From: Candidatus Poribacteria bacterium
GTDB lineage: Bacteria; Poribacteria; WGA-4E; PCPOR2b
DNA: 64,000 bases
Assembly (NCBI GenBank): GCA_965116925.1
Contig: OZ220744.1
Location: forward strand, 4,160,001-4,224,000
Direction of reading: 5' to 3'
Shown: positions 3,468-13,017 of the stretch, piece after piece
Position numbering within the stretch: position 1 is the first letter of the stretch
Layout: each line of letters starts with the position of its first letter
Position numbers and translations under genes: made by a program
The notes under the pieces: model-generated
What the model saw: the letters and a program-made list of their open reading frames with translations, nothing else
Database searches by the model: none
What the model was told of the DNA's origin: nothing

Positions 3468-3656
3468 GTATTACTATTGTAATCACATTTGCCTCCAAAA
3501 ATTAATAGCCGGGTCAGTTTTGGGAATTGTGGTTTCCCTAGGTATTTTTCATTCGTTTCGAGGTCCGACTGGCACTCGCCTCGCCTATCAACTGGAATGC
3601 TTCCGTTGAAACGACATTTCCATCACCTGACCCGGCTTTTTTATTACGGATCCACG

Positions 3657-4553
3657 ATGAATCCATTCATTCAAATCGCTCAAGGTGTTATTGGAGCGAT
3701 TCTTATATCTGCCTTCTTCATTCTCAGATCAAGTTTCGGTGAAGCACGGCATACGCTTAGCATCATCGGTGCTATCATTATCTTTATCGCAAGTGGCTAC
3801 ATTCTGCGAACACGGTTAATCCGATGGGGGAGCCGGCAGGTCTGGCTCAAATACCATCAAAGGCTCGCATCGTTAGGATTATCGCTTGTTCTCATCCACT
3901 CAGCAGCCCAACCGCTCGTTTGGCATTCGTGGTTGGCGTTTACGTTAGCACTACTCAATCTTGGCACGGGTGTCGCGGTCAGTTTCACCACACATCGCGC
4001 ACGGCGGATTCTTCTCCGCTGCCATCTGGCACTTGCACCAATCTTGCTGCTTTCCGTTGTCCTACATGGTAGAGAAAAGTTAGACCACGATGAATTCTTT
4101 CCTTTGACTGAGGTTCACGACATCCCATGTGCGAAATGCCATACGTCGGAGAAACTGCTATTTACGATTGATCCACACTTTCAGAGCGATTTAGATAGTG
4201 GAGGGATTGTCTCAGAGGACTTGCAGTGGGAGTTTAATCTGCATGGGACTTCCCTCTCTCGACAGACAACGATTTCAACAAAAGAGACGGATAATCGCTG
4301 GCTGGTAACCGATGAAAAAAACGAGGGTGAATATACAGTCAAGAAAGCGGACGATCGGCTAAGTGTCCATACAGATGCTGTGTACGAGGCTTATACCTGT
4401 CTCACCTGTCATGTTCACAATACCCCGGAGATCCAATTTGACCACGAAAGTCATGGGGTCAAATCCTATAATGCCTGCCTCAACTGCCATCAGACTGTTA
4501 TCAATGGGGTAAAATACGGAACTCGAAAGGCGAATTGGGAGTATAATCCGTGA
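3657..4553 (+). CDS. Integral membrane protein with His-containing TM bundle fused to a triheme c-type cytochrome domain
   Basis: Several TM helices with WLKYH, LIH, RCH, VLH histidines; CAKCH, CLTCH, CLNCH motifs; start set at MNPFIQ. Confidence 0.75.
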   Translation: MNPFIQIAQGVIGAILISAFFILRSSFGEARHTLSIIGAIIIFIASGYILRTRLIRWGSRQVWLKYHQRLASLGLSLVLIHSAAQPLVWHSWLAFTLALLNLGTGVAVSFTTHRARRILLRCHLALAPILLLSVVLHGREKLDHDEFFPLTEVHDIPCAKCHTSEKLLFTIDPHFQSDLDSGGIVSEDLQWEFNLHGTSLSRQTTISTKETDNRWLVTDEKNEGEYTVKKADDRLSVHTDAVYEAYTCLTCHVHNTPEIQFDHESHGVKSYNACLNCHQTVINGVKYGTRKANWEYNP

Positions 4554-5300: not shown

Positions 5301-6842
5301 CTATTCAACCGCTCCAATTGCTGCGGCTTGCGGCGCACGAGTTGGGATTCTTTGCTGCGCTTGCTTATCTGCCGGCACATAGCCGGAGTAATCTGAAATT
5401 TGACCGTGCGTTAGTGCATAGATGGCAACATTGGTCATAAAACGGTAGACGCCGGGCGAGTAGCGCACCCGACGGCTTGGCAGACTGATTGACTCCATCG
5501 CACACATATAGTCTCGACGAATGATCAGCACAGAAAGTTTGTCGCCGATAAAAATGCCTTCAAGAAAATTCCGTGATAGATTATAAGCAGGGCGTCCACT
5601 CGTTAAAAAAAAACCGATTGTCCTACCGGGATGGTAAATGTCAAAGCCGATGGGTGGTCCACCCATCTGATAGAAGTTGTGATAAATTTCATGGCTGTTG
5701 GGGATACGTCCCACATGATATTCTGGCATGATGTGCCGCATATTAGTCAGAAATAGACGGGTCATTGATTGGTCAGCAGCATGGGTACCACAGTCATCAA
5801 AAATGAGGAACCCTTCTTTTTCAACCAGATAGCGCCGCAACGAGACCGCTTCTAATCGAGAGAATTGACTACTCTTGATACTGCGAAGCATTCGCCCGGT
5901 GTCCAATGCTCTTACACCTTTTGCTTTAGTAAGAGCGGGATTATGTCCAGTCATGACGAGAATCGGTGATTTCATCACATTGGCGTCAGTCAACTTTAGT
6001 GCTCCGCCCTCGACGTTCATGTCTGTTTTAATTTTCGTCCGTTCGTTCAACCACTTTGCCCACGCGTTCAACGAAGACGCATCTGCCCACCAATCAGAGA
6101 GGTCATGGCGAAGGCGCGTAAAACGAAAGATCCCACGAATATCACGACCTCTACCAACAACGCGGCCTCCCGGCTCGCCGCGGGGCAGGGGTGGCACTTC
6201 AAGATTACCAAGCATAACGCCATCAACTACCCCGTCCAAGGCGTCCCCGATGGCTCCAACCTCCTTGACCATCGCAAGTTCCAACGGCAACTTGAACCCA
6301 TCAGTGATCCTGACCTGCACAGTCCCCCCAGACGACATTCCACGACCACTGCCTCCAATCCCACGACTCATGCGCCCACCATTTTTACCTGTGCCTATGA
6401 CGACAAATGAAGATAATGCCAGCGCATCAGAAATAGGGGCATCTGTATGTGTTACGCCCTTAGGAATAAGTGTATTGGAGACCACTTTTGGCACATTGGG
6501 GTTGAGGGGGGCATTAAGTTTCAAGGCTTGATTTGAAAACGTGGAGACGGTCTGCGGTTGGACAGTGGCTGTACGAACGCCAGCCGCATTTGTCGTTCTC
6601 GGTTGGGTTTTAACCGGTTCAACGATGACCGTGTTTTTGACTGGCACCTCTGGCTTTTGAACGGGTTTGATGACGGGTTTCCGAACTTGGGGTTTGGGTG
6701 GCGGATTCGCTGGTTGCAAAACTTCAATGCCTATCAAATCCTTAAATGATTGGGTTTGTGTTACTAGATACCCTCCAATAATAGCAGCAAGACACAGATG
6801 GATTGCTAAAGAGATAAACCAAGAACGCGAAACGGTGGACAT
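5301..6842 (-). CDS. Membrane-anchored protein: TonB-like SxxxH TM, Pro-rich linker, C-terminal DUF4159-like domain
   Basis: SLAIHL TM; PPPKP linker; SDWWAD, PILVMTGH, LRRYLVEKEGFLIFDDC, IPNSHEIYHNFY, TNVAIYALTH motifs. Confidence 0.75.
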   Translation of the reverse strand: MSTVSRSWFISLAIHLCLAAIIGGYLVTQTQSFKDLIGIEVLQPANPPPKPQVRKPVIKPVQKPEVPVKNTVIVEPVKTQPRTTNAAGVRTATVQPQTVSTFSNQALKLNAPLNPNVPKVVSNTLIPKGVTHTDAPISDALALSSFVVIGTGKNGGRMSRGIGGSGRGMSSGGTVQVRITDGFKLPLELAMVKEVGAIGDALDGVVDGVMLGNLEVPPLPRGEPGGRVVGRGRDIRGIFRFTRLRHDLSDWWADASSLNAWAKWLNERTKIKTDMNVEGGALKLTDANVMKSPILVMTGHNPALTKAKGVRALDTGRMLRSIKSSQFSRLEAVSLRRYLVEKEGFLIFDDCGTHAADQSMTRLFLTNMRHIMPEYHVGRIPNSHEIYHNFYQMGGPPIGFDIYHPGRTIGFFLTSGRPAYNLSRNFLEGIFIGDKLSVLIIRRDYMCAMESISLPSRRVRYSPGVYRFMTNVAIYALTHGQISDYSGYVPADKQAQQRIPTRAPQAAAIGAVE

Positions 6843-6933
6843 AATTTTTATCCCCTTACTCCTGAAGTTTTATCATATGAATGACGCTTTAGCCAAGTGC
6901 TATGAGTCTATCGATTGGATTGCCATAAAACCC

Positions 6934-6960
6934 AAAAAGCGCCGCTAAACAGCGACGCTT
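6934..6960 (-). terminator. Probable intrinsic terminator after the 7024 lipoprotein gene
   Basis: Stem AAGCGTCGCT/AGCGGCGCTT running into a T-tract on the minus strand. Confidence 0.5.
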
Positions 6961-7023
6961 CGGTTTGAAAGCTAATGTTGTTGTTTCAGATAGGGCAGAT
7001 ACCATCATTCACGCCATGCCTCA

Positions 7024-8706
7024 TCATTCACGCCATGCCTGCTGGCTGATAATATCATCCTGCCCCAATTCATCGAAAATAAGGGCTGTATTGCTACCGT
7101 CGGCATCCATCATCCAGATACCCAAACTACCGTTGCGGTCACTGCTGAAGATTATCTTCGTCCCATCGGTAGACCAACACGGATACCCGTTGTAACCGAC
7201 CTCGCCCGTCAGGCGGGTTTGAACCAGCGAAAACAGATCTAGAACATACACCGCAGCGTTCAGCGGCGCGCTTTCCTTGGTAAACACCAATTTCGACCCG
7301 TCTGGACTCCAATCCGGGTGGATATCGTGGTGTGCACTAATTGTCAAACGTTGAATCCCTTCTTCGAGTGCTGGTGGATCGGCACTCGGTGCTTGGGGTG
7401 GGTCACCTTCACCTTCCTGTTTATCTTGCTCATCATCCGGCGTTTGATGAGGATCCGGCTCCGGTTCCGGCTTTTGGGGTGGGTCCGGTTCCGGCTCAGG
7501 CTCCGGTTCCGGCTCTGCTTCGGGTTCCGGTTCCGGCTCCGGTTCTGGTATGACTTGTGTTGGCGGTGCCTCCTTGGCGGCGAGAAATGTCTCAATATCC
7601 ACCACAAAAAGATTTCGTATCCCTTCGTTCAGAGCATGGTTATAGACGAGTTGAGTCCCATCGGGCGACCACGCAGGTCGAGAATCTGCGTGGCAGTCGG
7701 AAAGCCTGACACGATTGTCTCCGTTCACATTCATAGTGTAAATTGCAGGTTGACCCAACGCACGCGCATGAACAAATGCTAGACGACGACCATCGGGTGA
7801 CCACGCTGGATGACGATCATTAAAATGGTCTCCGCTGAGTGGCATCGCATTACCACCACGATTATCCATAATATAGATTTGTAGCGGACGATTGTTTTCT
7901 GAACGACTGAACGCTATTTCCATACCGTTAGGGGACCACGACGGGTTGACATCAAACACATGGGTCAACGCCTTTTCTCCATTCCGATCCGCGTTAATCA
8001 CTGAAATACCAAAAAAGTCATTACCCGCTACATTGCCACGCGCAAAAACTATCTGACCCCTTACTTGACGACGAATCGTGACCTTTTGGGAAATATCATT
8101 ATCACCTACAACTAGACCCGGTATATGCGTCGTCTGATAACCCGGCTTTTCCGCTGTCAAGTTGTACACGCCCTTCGATACAGGCGATATCTCATATTGA
8201 CCACCACCCTTGGTCACCGACGCACGGTCACCCAGAGTGATGAGAACATTGGAAACTGCATTGCCATCGTCCGATACCACTGTACCCTTAAACCTCACAC
8301 CCGGTTCAAGGCGAAAATGAACCGTCGCTGACTCTTTACGCGTCACCGTTACCGACGCTTGCTGGTCCAAGTAACCGGGCGCATAGATCTGTATTATATA
8401 GTCACCCGCTTTCAGTTCGCCAAAAAGGAAGTTACCACTCCCATCCGTCGTGACTGACGCTATCGATTCCTGTTCAAAATCTCCCCCCGGCAACTTTTTC
8501 GACGACGACAACGTCACTTGGATACCCCCAATCCCTTGCTCCGTTACCAAGTCTACAATCGTACCTTTGACCACGCCCTCCGGCGTTGATACTACCACAG
8601 GACCTACATCTACAACATCATCTTCGTCATCTCCACAACCTAATAAAAATAAAAATAGCGTCAAAGCAACAAAGCTGAAATAGGCGTAACGGATTAGGTT
8701 CGACAT
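7024..8706 (-). CDS. Lipoprotein: carboxypeptidase-regulatory-like beta domains + TolB-like PD40 propeller with Pro/Glu insert (copy 1)
   Basis: Lipobox LLGC; six P-x-WS(P/T)(D/N)G repeats; EPEP tract; alternative GTG start at 8754. Confidence 0.8.
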   Translation of the reverse strand: MSNLIRYAYFSFVALTLFLFLLGCGDDEDDVVDVGPVVVSTPEGVVKGTIVDLVTEQGIGGIQVTLSSSKKLPGGDFEQESIASVTTDGSGNFLFGELKAGDYIIQIYAPGYLDQQASVTVTRKESATVHFRLEPGVRFKGTVVSDDGNAVSNVLITLGDRASVTKGGGQYEISPVSKGVYNLTAEKPGYQTTHIPGLVVGDNDISQKVTIRRQVRGQIVFARGNVAGNDFFGISVINADRNGEKALTHVFDVNPSWSPNGMEIAFSRSENNRPLQIYIMDNRGGNAMPLSGDHFNDRHPAWSPDGRRLAFVHARALGQPAIYTMNVNGDNRVRLSDCHADSRPAWSPDGTQLVYNHALNEGIRNLFVVDIETFLAAKEAPPTQVIPEPEPEPEPEAEPEPEPEPEPDPPQKPEPEPDPHQTPDDEQDKQEGEGDPPQAPSADPPALEEGIQRLTISAHHDIHPDWSPDGSKLVFTKESAPLNAAVYVLDLFSLVQTRLTGEVGYNGYPCWSTDGTKIIFSSDRNGSLGIWMMDADGSNTALIFDELGQDDIISQQAWRE

Positions 8707-8852
8707 AAAAATTCGTGGAATATATTTATCCGACAGGAATCGATAAACAACCACTTCCTCCTTTCAAAATTTGCCCGCTGACAAAATGCAAGGTTAAATC
8801 TTCATGAGATGATAGCGGAAGACAGTTCAAAAAACAAAGAAATTAATCGTGC

Positions 8853-9015
8853 TAGGACTCACGCAATTGAACGGTCAAAGCCCTGTAGTTCGGCGATTCA
8901 TCGCCGCTGGACACCGTTGCCAACGCCCGATGAATCGGGCAACTACAGCAGAGGCTCCATAAGGAGTCCGTAGGGAACGCAGATCTGCGTTCCCTACGGA
9001 AGTGCGTAACTCCTA
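8853..9015. repeat. MITE-like element carrying GTAG-type REP palindromes
   Basis: Ends TAGGACTCACGCA...TGCGTAACTCCTA; internal GTAGTTCGGCGATTCATCGCCG and GTAGGGAACGCAGATCTGCGTTCCCTAC; near-copy at ~20899-21061. Confidence 0.75.
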
Positions 9016-9022
9016 CAGAAAT

Positions 9023-10642
9023 TTACAATTTCTGTATGACAACTGGTGCTTTTTTACGATAACTATCATCACCAGAGTTTTTAAGTGTTTCGGGAACGTA
9101 GTTGCTATAATCCGAAATATTCCCATGGGTGATGGCATAGACCACAATGTTAATCATGTGCCGCGCCGCGTGGGGTGCAAATTCTTCTAGGACTTGATTT
9201 TGATTGTACAAGTGACCATAGAACGGTTTCTGAACTTTGCCATCGATCACATGCATCATCTGCTCGGTATCTACTAACACAGCAAGACGACCATCAATCG
9301 TGATACCTTGCAATTCGGAATAGGGACCAAAGTGAAGGGGGATGGTTATTCCGCCATACACGACATGCCGCAAGGGAAAACGCAAAGGACCGTTTAGCGA
9401 GTAATAGGTGTTGTAAACCGGGTGATCATTCGGAACAAAGCCAAGTGGATGCTCTGGCAGGAGATCTCGCAGCACCTTTCTTGTCCCTTTCAATGCGTTA
9501 TCTGTATTTCCATGCGTTGCTAGATAGAGGAATCCGCCACGATTGATTACATATTCTCGCAATCTTTGGACTTCAACATCAGTGTATTTACTCAATCCGC
9601 TCGGACGCCTCGTATTCCAGATCGGAATGCTGTGGGAATTGAATACCCGCTTCTTGTGTTCTGGACTTATCCGTGAGCCACCTGATACCGGTTCCATAAA
9701 AAGAATCGGCGTCTGAAAGAACGATGCATCCTTCAGGTGGACCGCTTCAACAAGTTGGGTCTTGATTTTAGTCTTTTGATTCAGTGATTGTACTAAATAG
9801 GACAGACCTGCCCCAAATCGGAAATTTCCGACTCCACTGTTTCATATATCTGCGCTTGGGTGAAGCGGATCTTCAAAACGAGCAAGGTTTAAGCGACCCA
9901 TGATATCTCGACCGCGACCCACAATTATAGCACCAGGACTGCCAGCAGGAAGTTCAGGCACTTCTCCTCCTAGCGTTACTTTGTCGGCGACATTGGCAAG
10001 TGTATCGTCGATGTTAGACGCGCCTTCAGCACCGACCAGCGAACCGAGACCCGTGCCTCCTCTGGTCGGGGTTTGGCTCACACCACCTCCTAAACCGAAG
10101 GAACCCCGCCCAACACCGCTACCACTACCTTCGCCAAGACTGCCTGTGCCGGAAAGCGAACTGTTTCCGCTCAGTCCCGCAGCTAACGGGGCATCCGACT
10201 GAACCGGGAGATCAACAGCAGTGGCAAGTGAGTGGGCGGGACGGTCATTGGCGCGAAAAGATTGAGAAGCCCCTTGGACAGAAATTTCTGCACGCACAGA
10301 TTGTGCCGGAGACTGAGATACCGGGGCATCCACCGCTGTGGCTTTCGGCACAGATACAGAAGTTGATTTCACCGGATGGGGTGTAAAAGCCCGGGTCTGT
10401 ACCGATGCTGACAGACGCTCGATTTGAAAATTAGGCGTGGGCGTAGGTACGATGGAAGGGGCTACTATGCGTGGGGTTTTCTCCACAGGCGGCACCGGTT
10501 TAACTTTGAGAATGCTCACTTCTAAAGCATCGACATCGCTCCGAATAGTTTGGTTGACGATGATAACGCTGAGAACCATCGCTAGGCATAGATGGACCAA
10601 TAGAGAAACGCACCAGAAACGGTACTTGTAATGAGATTTCAT
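9023..10642 (-). CDS. TonB-like-anchored DUF4159-like protein with one in-frame TGA at 9842-9844 (candidate selenoprotein, or nonsense pseudogene)
   Basis: AAGGAGG RBS before ATG 10642; ORFs 9842..10870 and 9023..9697 share a frame; the 48 intervening codons are stop-free (NSGVGNFRFGAGLSYLVQSLNQKTKIKTQLVEAVHLKDASFFQTPILF) and align with paralogue 5301..6842. Confidence 0.8.
9799..9841 (-). promoter_or_regulatory. Candidate bacterial SECIS element
   Basis: GGGGCAGGTCTGTCCT hairpin 27 nt after the TGA contains GCAGGUCUG, as in the E. coli fdhF SECIS apical stem-loop. Confidence 0.5.
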
Positions 10643-10687
10643 GAGGGTAACCTCCTTAAAGCGAATAATTGGCTTTTGACATACTCC

Positions 10688-10818
10688 CACATGTGAGCGT
10701 GCCAGTTCCGGTTTGCCCGAAAGGGGCGTTACCGAACCGTGAGTCCACGATTCTGTGAGTGCTGAAACAGCACAACAGAAGCATGACATCGGGATTTGTA
10801 AAGTCCCAAGCGCATGTG
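10688..10818. ncRNA. Candidate multi-branch structured RNA of unknown family
   Basis: Closing helix CACATGTG/CGCATGTG encloses three hairpins with GAAA/GTAA-type loops on the + strand. Confidence 0.4.
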
Positions 10819-11343
10819 AGATTCCGCTATTAACAACACTTACTACCCGAAGAGGATTCAGCAACATCAATTTACATCTACTAGCCCCAAGGTAGTCTTA
10901 CGGTGTCTCGCTCAATGGACAATACTTCGTCCATTTTCTATATTTATACTGCTTTAGGCGGTTCAGAATGAAAGGTTTTTGTAACAGGTCATTTCTACCT
11001 AACCCCAATGATTGGGAAGGATGGCAGCTCATTGATTGGTCAGCCACCACTCATACACTGTTACTTGAAAAAGCATTGTAGCATGTTTTCGTTAGAAATA
11101 CAATTTTTTAATAGATAGCATGGTTAAGCGCGCAACATCCCCTTGAATCCCCGGAACATTACACTATACGGAAGTTGCTACTTAAATGCTAAATTGAATC
11201 AATCACCGCCTACAATATAAACCTCCTTGCATTCATTTGCAACCAGTTTTTTGAGGGGTATGGACATATCATGTCCATACTCCAAAAGTAACTGGAATTT
11301 TTGTGTGATTGGTTGAAGCAATTTTTTTATGGCGCACTGGGTT

Positions 11344-13017
11344 TTACTCACGCCATGCGTGTTGGCTGATAATATCATCCTGACTTAACTCATCAAAAAC
11401 AAGAGCGGTATTGCTGCCATCTGCATCCATGATCCAAATGCCAAAACTTCCATTACGATCACTGCTGAAAACAATCTTTGTACCATCAGGAGACCAACAC
11501 GGATAGCCGTTGTAACCTTCCGCACCGGTCAATCGGATTTGGCTTAGCGAAAATAGATCTACGACATACACCGCAGCATCGAACGGGGCGGTTTCTTTAG
11601 TAAAGACTAATTTTGAACCGTCTGGACTCCAATCCGGGTGGATATCGTGGTTTGCACTAATTGTCAAACGTTGAATCCCTTCTTCGAGTGCTGGTAGATC
11701 GGCGATCGGTGCCTGAGGTGGATCGCCCTCCCCCTCCTTCTTCTCTTCACCATCTGGGGTTTGATGGGGATCCGGCTCCGGCTCTGGCTTTTGGGGTATC
11801 TCCGGTTCCGGTTCTGGCTCCGGTACTATCTCTGGTTCCGGTTCCGGCTTCGGTTCTGGTTCCGCTTTCGTAGGGGGCGCGTCTTTGGCGGCGAGAAATG
11901 CCTCGATGTCCACCACAAAAAGATTCCGTTTGCCTCCCTTCAGAAGTGCATAGGTATAGACGATCTGAGTGCCATCAGGTGACCATGTAGGCCTAGCGTC
12001 TACATCGGAGTCGGCAAGTCGAACCCGATTCCCTCCGTTCACATTCATGGTATAAATTGCTGGTTGCCCCAAGGCTCGCGCGTGAACAAAGGCGATGCGG
12101 CGACCATCAGGAGACCAAGCCGGGTGTCGATCGTTGAAATGGTCCCCGCTGATGGATCTGGCACTGCCGCCGCGGTTATCCATAATGTAAATTTGTGGTA
12201 GCCCCCTGTTTTCTGAACGACTGAAAACAATTTCTCTACCATTAGGGGACCAGGTAGGCTGTAGGTCAGAAAGGTCTGTTAGAGACTTTTCGCCTGTACG
12301 GTCAGCGTTAATCGTTGAAATCCCAAAGAAGTCTTTGCCAACAACATCGGCGCGTACGAAGACAATCTGTCCCGTTACTTTGCGTCGAATAGAGATCCTT
12401 CGCGAGATGTCGCTATCACCGACAGTTATACTCGATATGTGTGTTGTGTGATAGCCCGGCTTTTCCGCAATCAAGTTGTATTGTCCCTTGGAGACCGGGG
12501 AAATTTCATATTGTCCACCACCATTCGTTACTGCCGCGCGTTCACCTAAAGAGATAAGAACATTTGCAACGACATTGCCATCGTCAGAGACCACGATGCC
12601 CTTAAACCTGACACCGGGTTCAACAAGAAAATTAACAATTGCAGGCTCTTTGCGAGTGACTTCCACCGGTGCTTGTTGACCCAGATAACCACGGGGATTG
12701 ATTTCCAAGACATATTCACCGGTTTTTAGTTCTTCAAATATGAAGCTCCCACTAGAATTGGTGGCTGTTGAAGCGACATTTTCCCGCTCAATATCGCCCC
12801 CTGGGAGTTTCTTTTGTGCAACCAATATAACTTGGGCATCTATAACGCCCTGCTGTGTGACCAGATCTACAACGGTTCCTTTGATAACCCCTTCCGGTGT
12901 TGCCACAACCCGGGGCCCTATATCATCAACAACTTCGTCATCACCACAGCCGATAAAAAACACAAACAGCGTCAAAGCAAAAAGACCGAGATAGGAGTAA
13001 CGGGTTAAGTTCGCCAT
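11344..13017 (-). CDS. Lipoprotein: carboxypeptidase-regulatory-like beta domains + TolB-like PD40 propeller with Pro/Glu insert (copy 2)
   Basis: Lipobox FIGC; full-length colinear paralogue of 7024..8706. Confidence 0.8.
   Translation of the reverse strand: MANLTRYSYLGLFALTLFVFFIGCGDDEVVDDIGPRVVATPEGVIKGTVVDLVTQQGVIDAQVILVAQKKLPGGDIERENVASTATNSSGSFIFEELKTGEYVLEINPRGYLGQQAPVEVTRKEPAIVNFLVEPGVRFKGIVVSDDGNVVANVLISLGERAAVTNGGGQYEISPVSKGQYNLIAEKPGYHTTHISSITVGDSDISRRISIRRKVTGQIVFVRADVVGKDFFGISTINADRTGEKSLTDLSDLQPTWSPNGREIVFSRSENRGLPQIYIMDNRGGSARSISGDHFNDRHPAWSPDGRRIAFVHARALGQPAIYTMNVNGGNRVRLADSDVDARPTWSPDGTQIVYTYALLKGGKRNLFVVDIEAFLAAKDAPPTKAEPEPKPEPEPEIVPEPEPEPEIPQKPEPEPDPHQTPDGEEKKEGEGDPPQAPIADLPALEEGIQRLTISANHDIHPDWSPDGSKLVFTKETAPFDAAVYVVDLFSLSQIRLTGAEGYNGYPCWSPDGTKIVFSSDRNGSFGIWIMDADGSNTALVFDELSQDDIISQHAWRE

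Follow-up and report, generated by a model that had tools for sequence, protein, structure and literature searches.

The DUF4159 gene and its in-frame UGA

The stretch of DNA analysed here (the window) comprises 64,000 nucleotides of contig OZ220744.1 from a Candidatus Poribacteria bacterium (assembly GCA_965116925.1, positions 4,160,001 to 4,224,000). Its minus strand carries, at 10642..9023, a candidate selenoprotein gene of 539 codons with a domain of the DUF4159 family. The frame contains one internal stop only, a TGA at 9844-9842 (codon 267), which would be read as selenocysteine (Sec267, U267). This agrees with the original prediction, which described a single TGA in an otherwise intact frame and placed it at the start of the DUF4159-like domain. 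An AAGGAGG motif resembling a Shine-Dalgarno sequence (10651..10657) lies ahead of the ATG at 10642, and no ribosome-binding site was found ahead of the next in-frame ATG after the UGA (codon 316). Database entries hold the gene as two halves, a hypothetical N-terminal protein and a 'DUF4159 domain-containing' C-terminal one.

Behind a basic N-terminus, hydropathy indicates a single hydrophobic helix (residues 10-29, 10556..10615), which is predicted to anchor the protein in the membrane with its N-terminus in and its C-terminus out. A low-complexity linker rich in Pro, Ser and Gly (residues 30-221, 9980..10555) leads to the C-terminal domain (residues 222-539, 9026..9979), where U is the sole Cys-type site. 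Both the Pfam score and the fold assign this domain to DUF4159: residues 352-503 match PF13709 (E 8.8e-18; 65 bits, cut-off 25.9), and the fold, of the class-I glutamine-amidotransferase-like type, is that of PDB 4i66. As the fold starts near residue 248, its first strand precedes the UGA, which falls in the first loop. Sigma regions 2 and 4 are absent from the frame.

Conservation of the UGA across relatives

We compared 88 distinct copies that cover the site and share at least 40% domain identity (range 46-100%); four matches that do not cover the site were dropped. The codon at the site is TGA in 72 copies, TGT in 13 and TGC in 2, and one distant metagenome copy has neither. Trp (TGG) was found in none of the 88, and all 72 stop-bearing copies have TGA, never TAA or TAG. 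This is the pattern expected of a selenoprotein, with an in-frame UGA conserved among orthologues and Cys at the aligned position, also in the outgroup protein P0049. The original prediction had proposed to decide between Sec and a nonsense change by whether orthologues carry UGA or Cys, or else Trp; the count (72, 15 and 0 of 88) speaks for Sec.

Across 176 genomes of the phylum, the subfamily was found in 78, belonging to two families and 8 of 31 genera, and 75 of these 78 hold a UGA copy. The search gave 102 matches: 85 with one TGA, 15 full-length without a stop and 2 partial ones that do not cover the site. Poribacteria are sponge-associated bacteria; 69 of 71 close relatives with named records are Candidatus Poribacteria (the other 2 are 'uncultured bacterium'), and several sequencing runs are labelled sponge metagenome. 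The window's genome itself has a second UGA copy (C1:4148059, 86% identical) and a Cys copy (C1:4146045).

Purifying selection acts past the UGA. The frame stays open for at least 255 codons in 71 of the 72 UGA copies, with a median dN/dS of 0.13 downstream of the UGA (25 pairs). Between the UGA and the next Met, 49 codons show no indels in any of the 70 full-length UGA copies (one truncated copy and one at a contig end were left out) and are as conserved as the rest. The UGA copy L016 (G013:C1:1685340-1685756), whose frame ends 50 codons past the site, is probably a broken duplicate. Paralogues of a Trp type, named for their SDWW motif, form a separate subfamily of about 30% identity that is gapped at the Sec loop, so that Trp is not the ancestral residue of the Sec subfamily.

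A conserved hairpin downstream of the UGA

The sequence GGGGCAGGTCTGTCCT (9814..9799, 16 nt), 27 nt past the UGA, forms a hairpin with a 6 bp stem and a GGUC loop, a candidate selenocysteine insertion sequence (SECIS) with an fdhF-type apex that lacks the bulged U. It contains 9 nt, GCAGGTCTG, identical to the fdhF SECIS of the E. coli K-12 record, which bears out the fdhF-like SECIS predicted at this distance; the identity starts 30 nt past the UGA, compared with 15 in fdhF. Genome-wide, the 9-mer occurs within 45 nt after the stop in only 3 of 4806 TGA-ended frames of at least 100 codons, two of which are the window gene and its paralogue.

All 72 UGA copies keep the 16-mer intact, 26 of them with a G-U pair and 46 with G-C (the sole variable stem base toggles between the two), whereas only 4 of the 15 Cys copies retain it and the other 11 carry six different altered versions. 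Within the encoded Arg-(Phe)-Gly-Ala-Gly-Leu stretch, Arg, whose codon precedes the hairpin, and Gly, Ala, Gly and Leu are each written with a single codon in all 70 full-length UGA copies; elsewhere in the domain, none of 79 comparable codons is fixed in these copies. The conservation of UGA and hairpin across relatives is far beyond chance.

The bacterial SECIS consensus model of PMC13188914 (Fig 2) has a loop of 3-9 nt, a stem of 4-16 bp, a G in the first two loop positions, a distance of 16-37 nt from the UGA and a minimum free energy of at most -7.5 kcal/mol. With its 4-nt loop starting with G, its 6 bp and its 33 nt from the UGA to the apical loop, the window hairpin lies within these limits of structure and position. 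The G-C variant (46 of 72 copies) folds at -8.6 kcal/mol, and both hairpins of the region together at -15.1. The folding energy of the window region (z -1.3 to -2.1) is not significant alone, and Rfam gave no matches at E<=10.

The other hairpin, hairpin 1 (9817..9832), has a 5-6 bp stem and a variable loop and starts 9 nt past the UGA. All five core pairs are kept in 70 of 72 UGA copies. The original prediction had supposed that an intervening hairpin, if extruded, would shorten the spacer to that of fdhF. The hairpin is real and its geometry fits, as folding it out leaves 9+2 unpaired nt, equal to the 11 nt of fdhF (PMC8659212). Its extrusion, and any role in Sec insertion, remains unproven because all 15 Cys copies keep it too, and the 33-nt spacing is already inside the 16-37 nt of the bacterial model (PMC13188914) without extrusion.

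Selenocysteine machinery in the genome

The genes selA, selB and tRNA-Sec are adjacent (C1:2373929-2377500), and selD, itself UGA-containing, is also present, so that all of selA, selB, selC and selD, the set that the original prediction had named for checking, were found. Among the 41 genomes searched for selB, 40 have a match above cut-off and the remaining one is 80% complete. Of the 48 tRNAs, tRNA-Sec alone has a UCA anticodon. UGA otherwise works as an ordinary stop, with release factor 2 (RF2, prfB) present and TGA terminating 897 of 3017 long frames. Other frames that read through an in-frame UGA lie at approximately C1:4898559, 4745312, 519400, 6017161 and 628700, with hairpins that do not have the apex sequence of the DUF4159 type.

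A candidate metal site

Six residues are invariant in 85 of 85 copies, namely His261, His377, His464, Glu317, Asp458 and Glu460. The three histidines are candidate metal ligands. His261 (9860..9862), six residues before the Sec, is invariant in the Trp-type alignment rows as well, while His377 (in THGN, 9512..9514) and His464 (9251..9253) correspond in the Trp-type subfamily to the Cys of DDCG and to that of DYMC, respectively. Matches in the wider family have Cys near the His377 position in 98 of 160 segments and near the His464 position in 49 of 79. The domain has no second Cys in any of the 70 full-length UGA copies, and thus no thioredoxin-type UxxC or CxxU motif.

Two positions that are often Cys in the wider family are His in the Sec subfamily, which suggests a His3-Sec metal site. 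A His/His/His/Sec set may have replaced the His/Cys/Cys set of the Trp-type subfamily, and Sec267, His261, His377 and His464 would then lie on one face of the fold. For Sec267 itself, we put the chance of a metal-ligand role at about even.

Evolution and sigma-factor fusions

A maximum-likelihood tree was made from 64 domains, with the deep clade subsampled and five proteins excluded whose domain start could not be located. The solo clade with TGC and the sigma-fused clade with TGT are each nested in UGA clades with starred support, which implies at least two reversions from Sec to Cys. On its long branch, the deeper relative P0049 carries Cys at the site. Two distant proteins, P0134 and P0136, terminate precisely at this position, and MBC8232824 and MBC8232825 form a pair of successive halves, a pattern which hints that the UGA may occur in further lineages.

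Sigma-70 region 2 was found among 47 proteins in 28 full-length and 10 truncated ones, and those 10 end exactly at the site. One genome (G014) holds the UGA and an intact SECIS within a fusion to a sigma factor of the extracytoplasmic function (ECF) type (L018/L080, 737 aa, L080 4747-6960); read through, it joins sigma regions 2 and 4 to DUF4159 by way of a helix and a linker. The gene next to this fusion has a start that resembles another solo copy. In the window's genome, the frame of a Cys paralogue (C1:4145367) likewise includes both of these sigma regions. DUF4159 is also fused to ECF sigma in P0064 and P0010, and to BlaR1 peptidase M56 in P0090. The anchor and linker of the sigma-fused Sec and Cys genes share 61-78% identity with Trp-type genes and about 30% with the window gene, which makes it likely that an ECF sigma fusion already existed when the Sec domain was swapped in. 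Elsewhere in the genome, several sigma-70 region-2 matches cluster near C1:5635000-5669000 and 1221000-1228000.

Weighing the explanations

The best overall explanation, which we regard as highly probable, is a membrane-anchored DUF4159 selenoprotein with Sec267; that the UGA at codon 267 is read as Sec is, taken alone, close to certain. The conserved hairpin, 27 nt past the UGA, would be recognised by SelB and Sec inserted at position 267, giving a single membrane-anchored selenoprotein of 539 residues whose DUF4159 domain is predicted to face the periplasm and probably has the selenium as a metal ligand. There, its most likely role would be to sense a metal or an oxidant at the envelope, or to bind one of them as its ligand. 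A sensing role is favoured because, in fusions of the ECF sigma-factor and BlaR1 types, related domains make up the outer part, and we propose it tentatively, at somewhat less than even chance. Bolder, and on balance improbable in all its parts together, is a scenario in which Poribacteria have a selenium-based envelope sensor whose Cys2 site was rebuilt as His3-Sec and whose domain was swapped into membrane-anchored ECF sigma factors, with a tandem-hairpin SECIS that brings a distant apex to the fdhF position.

Several observations weigh against this explanation or its parts. All support for Sec is at the level of sequence. For the window SECIS alone, the folding energy is -5.9 kcal/mol, weaker than the limit of -7.5 in the consensus model (PMC13188914), and the hairpin lacks the bulged U17 that is required in E. 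coli, where the fdhF stem lies 11 nt from the UGA (PMC8659212); with a linear distance of 27 nt and no bulge, it differs from the minimal fdhF-type SECIS. Two-sided covariation was seen at none of 12 base pairs in either hairpin (43 of 72 copies), and the Fisher p of 5e-11 for hairpin against UGA or Cys is inflated because the copies are related. The distant metagenome copy L060 keeps FGAGLSY and has neither UGA nor Cys at the site, nor a SECIS. For the metal site, the pLDDT of the Sec loop is below 50. A profile comparison with true amidotransferases gave no match (probability 0.1%), and no neighbour of the Sec subfamily is conserved across both families. Finally, sigma-70 region 2 has 42 matches genome-wide, about 24 of them in frames of more than 400 aa, and as long sigma fusions are thus common, a DUF4159-sigma fusion says little that is specific.

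Sec might also be inserted into an enzyme, a hydrolase or transferase acting on a periplasmic substrate, in which Sec267 would be the catalytic nucleophile in place of a Cys that serves as such in the wider family, and His and Glu would act as acid and base. We consider this rather unlikely: not one but several His are invariant, the change of both family Cys positions to His looks like a swap of ligands, no sequence match to amidotransferases was found, and the sigma and BlaR1 fusions suit sensing better. If the UGA were a true stop, the gene would show a conserved split between an anchor protein and a DUF4159 half with its own start, or else a regulated low-level read-through by another residue; this would fit the presence of RF2, the frequent use of TGA as terminator and the separate database halves. 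Such a reading is nonetheless very improbable, as the stop is never TAA or TAG, 15 intact copies have Cys in its place, the fold's first strand lies ahead of it, no ribosome-binding site precedes the next Met, and the hairpin decays only where the UGA became Cys.

The TGG>TGA nonsense change that the original prediction offered as its alternative, or a pseudogene or sequencing error, could draw on the SDWW of Trp-type paralogues, which falls roughly in the Sec loop, and on the truncated UGA copy of G013. It fails because no copy has Trp at the site; the conservation data (UGA in 75 of 78 genomes, dN/dS of 0.13, a Trp subfamily that is distant and gapped) refute it, and a base-call error cannot account for UGA in so many genomes. 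We give this reading practically no weight. Equally negligible is a genome-wide reassignment of UGA to Trp, Gly or Cys, which is refuted by the tRNA set, prfB and the many TGA terminators.

Genomic neighbourhood

Two genes of the minus strand lie downstream of the selenoprotein candidate. The first (7024..8754) encodes a lipoprotein-like product in which carboxypeptidase-regulatory domains are combined with a PD40/TolB-like propeller, and is adjacent in part of the family only; the second (5301..6842) is a Trp-type DUF4159 paralogue (SDWW, two Cys) of about 28% identity, which agrees in anchor and linker with the sigma-fused Sec and Cys genes. Two inverted clusters about 15 kb apart (C1:4144133-4151484 and window 5301-13017) each contain DUF4159 and CarboxypepD/PD40 lipoprotein genes, an arrangement that recurs in several genomes of the genus. 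The Sec gene is followed, at L104 (7188-10862) as at further loci of the deep clade, by a conserved run of genes for a rhodanese-type sulfurtransferase, PTPS, GTP cyclohydrolase I and a short-chain dehydrogenase.

Directly after the gene, window 8881-9002 holds two palindromic repeats, presumably REP-like; the second has about 280 short BLAST matches in the genome, and GTAGGG..CCCTAC palindromes number 117. The gene at window 3489-4553 encodes a membrane protein that contains CxxCH three times and weakly matches cytochrome c; it is flanked by the gene of an HtrA-like protease and by one that resembles uridine kinase.

Comparison with known systems

The DUF4159 Sec subfamily is very likely a real and new bacterial selenoprotein family, as the original prediction had proposed; the UGA/Cys site, the hairpin and the sel genes support it. 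NCBIfam gave no match for the window protein (P0001) at E<=1 and has no model for a Sec DUF4159 family. Neither DUF4159/PF13709 nor a sigma factor is among the 119 selenoprotein families in Table 1 of PMC13188914. No DUF4159 or Poribacter match was found in the available parts of deep-Sep (PMC12013277) and BSepDB (PMC13326102), supplements included, although the BSepDB file may be incomplete. Literature searches found no link between DUF4159 and selenoproteins (the candidate list of Deng 2026 could still hold DUF4159), only the Pfam paper for DUF4159 by name, and nothing on ECF sigma factors in Poribacteria.

The finding would add a family missing from the 119-family inventory (PMC13188914), NCBIfam and the searched papers, and it repairs a gene that at least 75 genomes have in two pieces. 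Sec and Cys forms that occur naturally within one genome, together with SECIS decay after reversion, offer a clean system for Sec loss. Selenocysteine usually marks the working residue of a protein, so that DUF4159, a domain of unknown function, gains its first candidate active site, along with a testable Cys-to-His ligand swap between its subfamilies.

Relative to the solved member Hoch_4089 (PDB 4i66), the window protein has its Sec/Cys in an inserted first loop, a membrane anchor and a long linker, and relative to the wider DUF4159 family (PF13709) its subfamily has His at two positions that are often Cys. Class-I glutamine amidotransferases have a Cys-His-Glu triad with the Cys at the nucleophile elbow. 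A known selenoprotein shares the class-I amidotransferase-like fold; the window gene differs from it in lacking the GxUxG motif and in placing its Sec in the loop that follows strand 1. An established class of ECF sigma factors (TIGR02937) bears a transmembrane helix and a C-terminal extension; unlike these, L080 holds an in-frame Sec codon in its extension, whereas the window gene has no sigma domain. If this is true, fusion to sigma would yield a transcription factor that contains selenocysteine, and its sensor domain would be made only when selenium permits read-through. E. coli fdhF-type genes share with the window gene an in-frame UGA, a hairpin in the coding region, a loop starting with G, the 9-nt apex identity, selABCD and Cys homologues. 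The window gene differs in its apex, 15 nt further from the UGA, in its extra intervening hairpin, in the lack of a bulged U and in encoding an unrelated protein. Sec insertion here is of a known kind, and the function of DUF4159 is what we infer.
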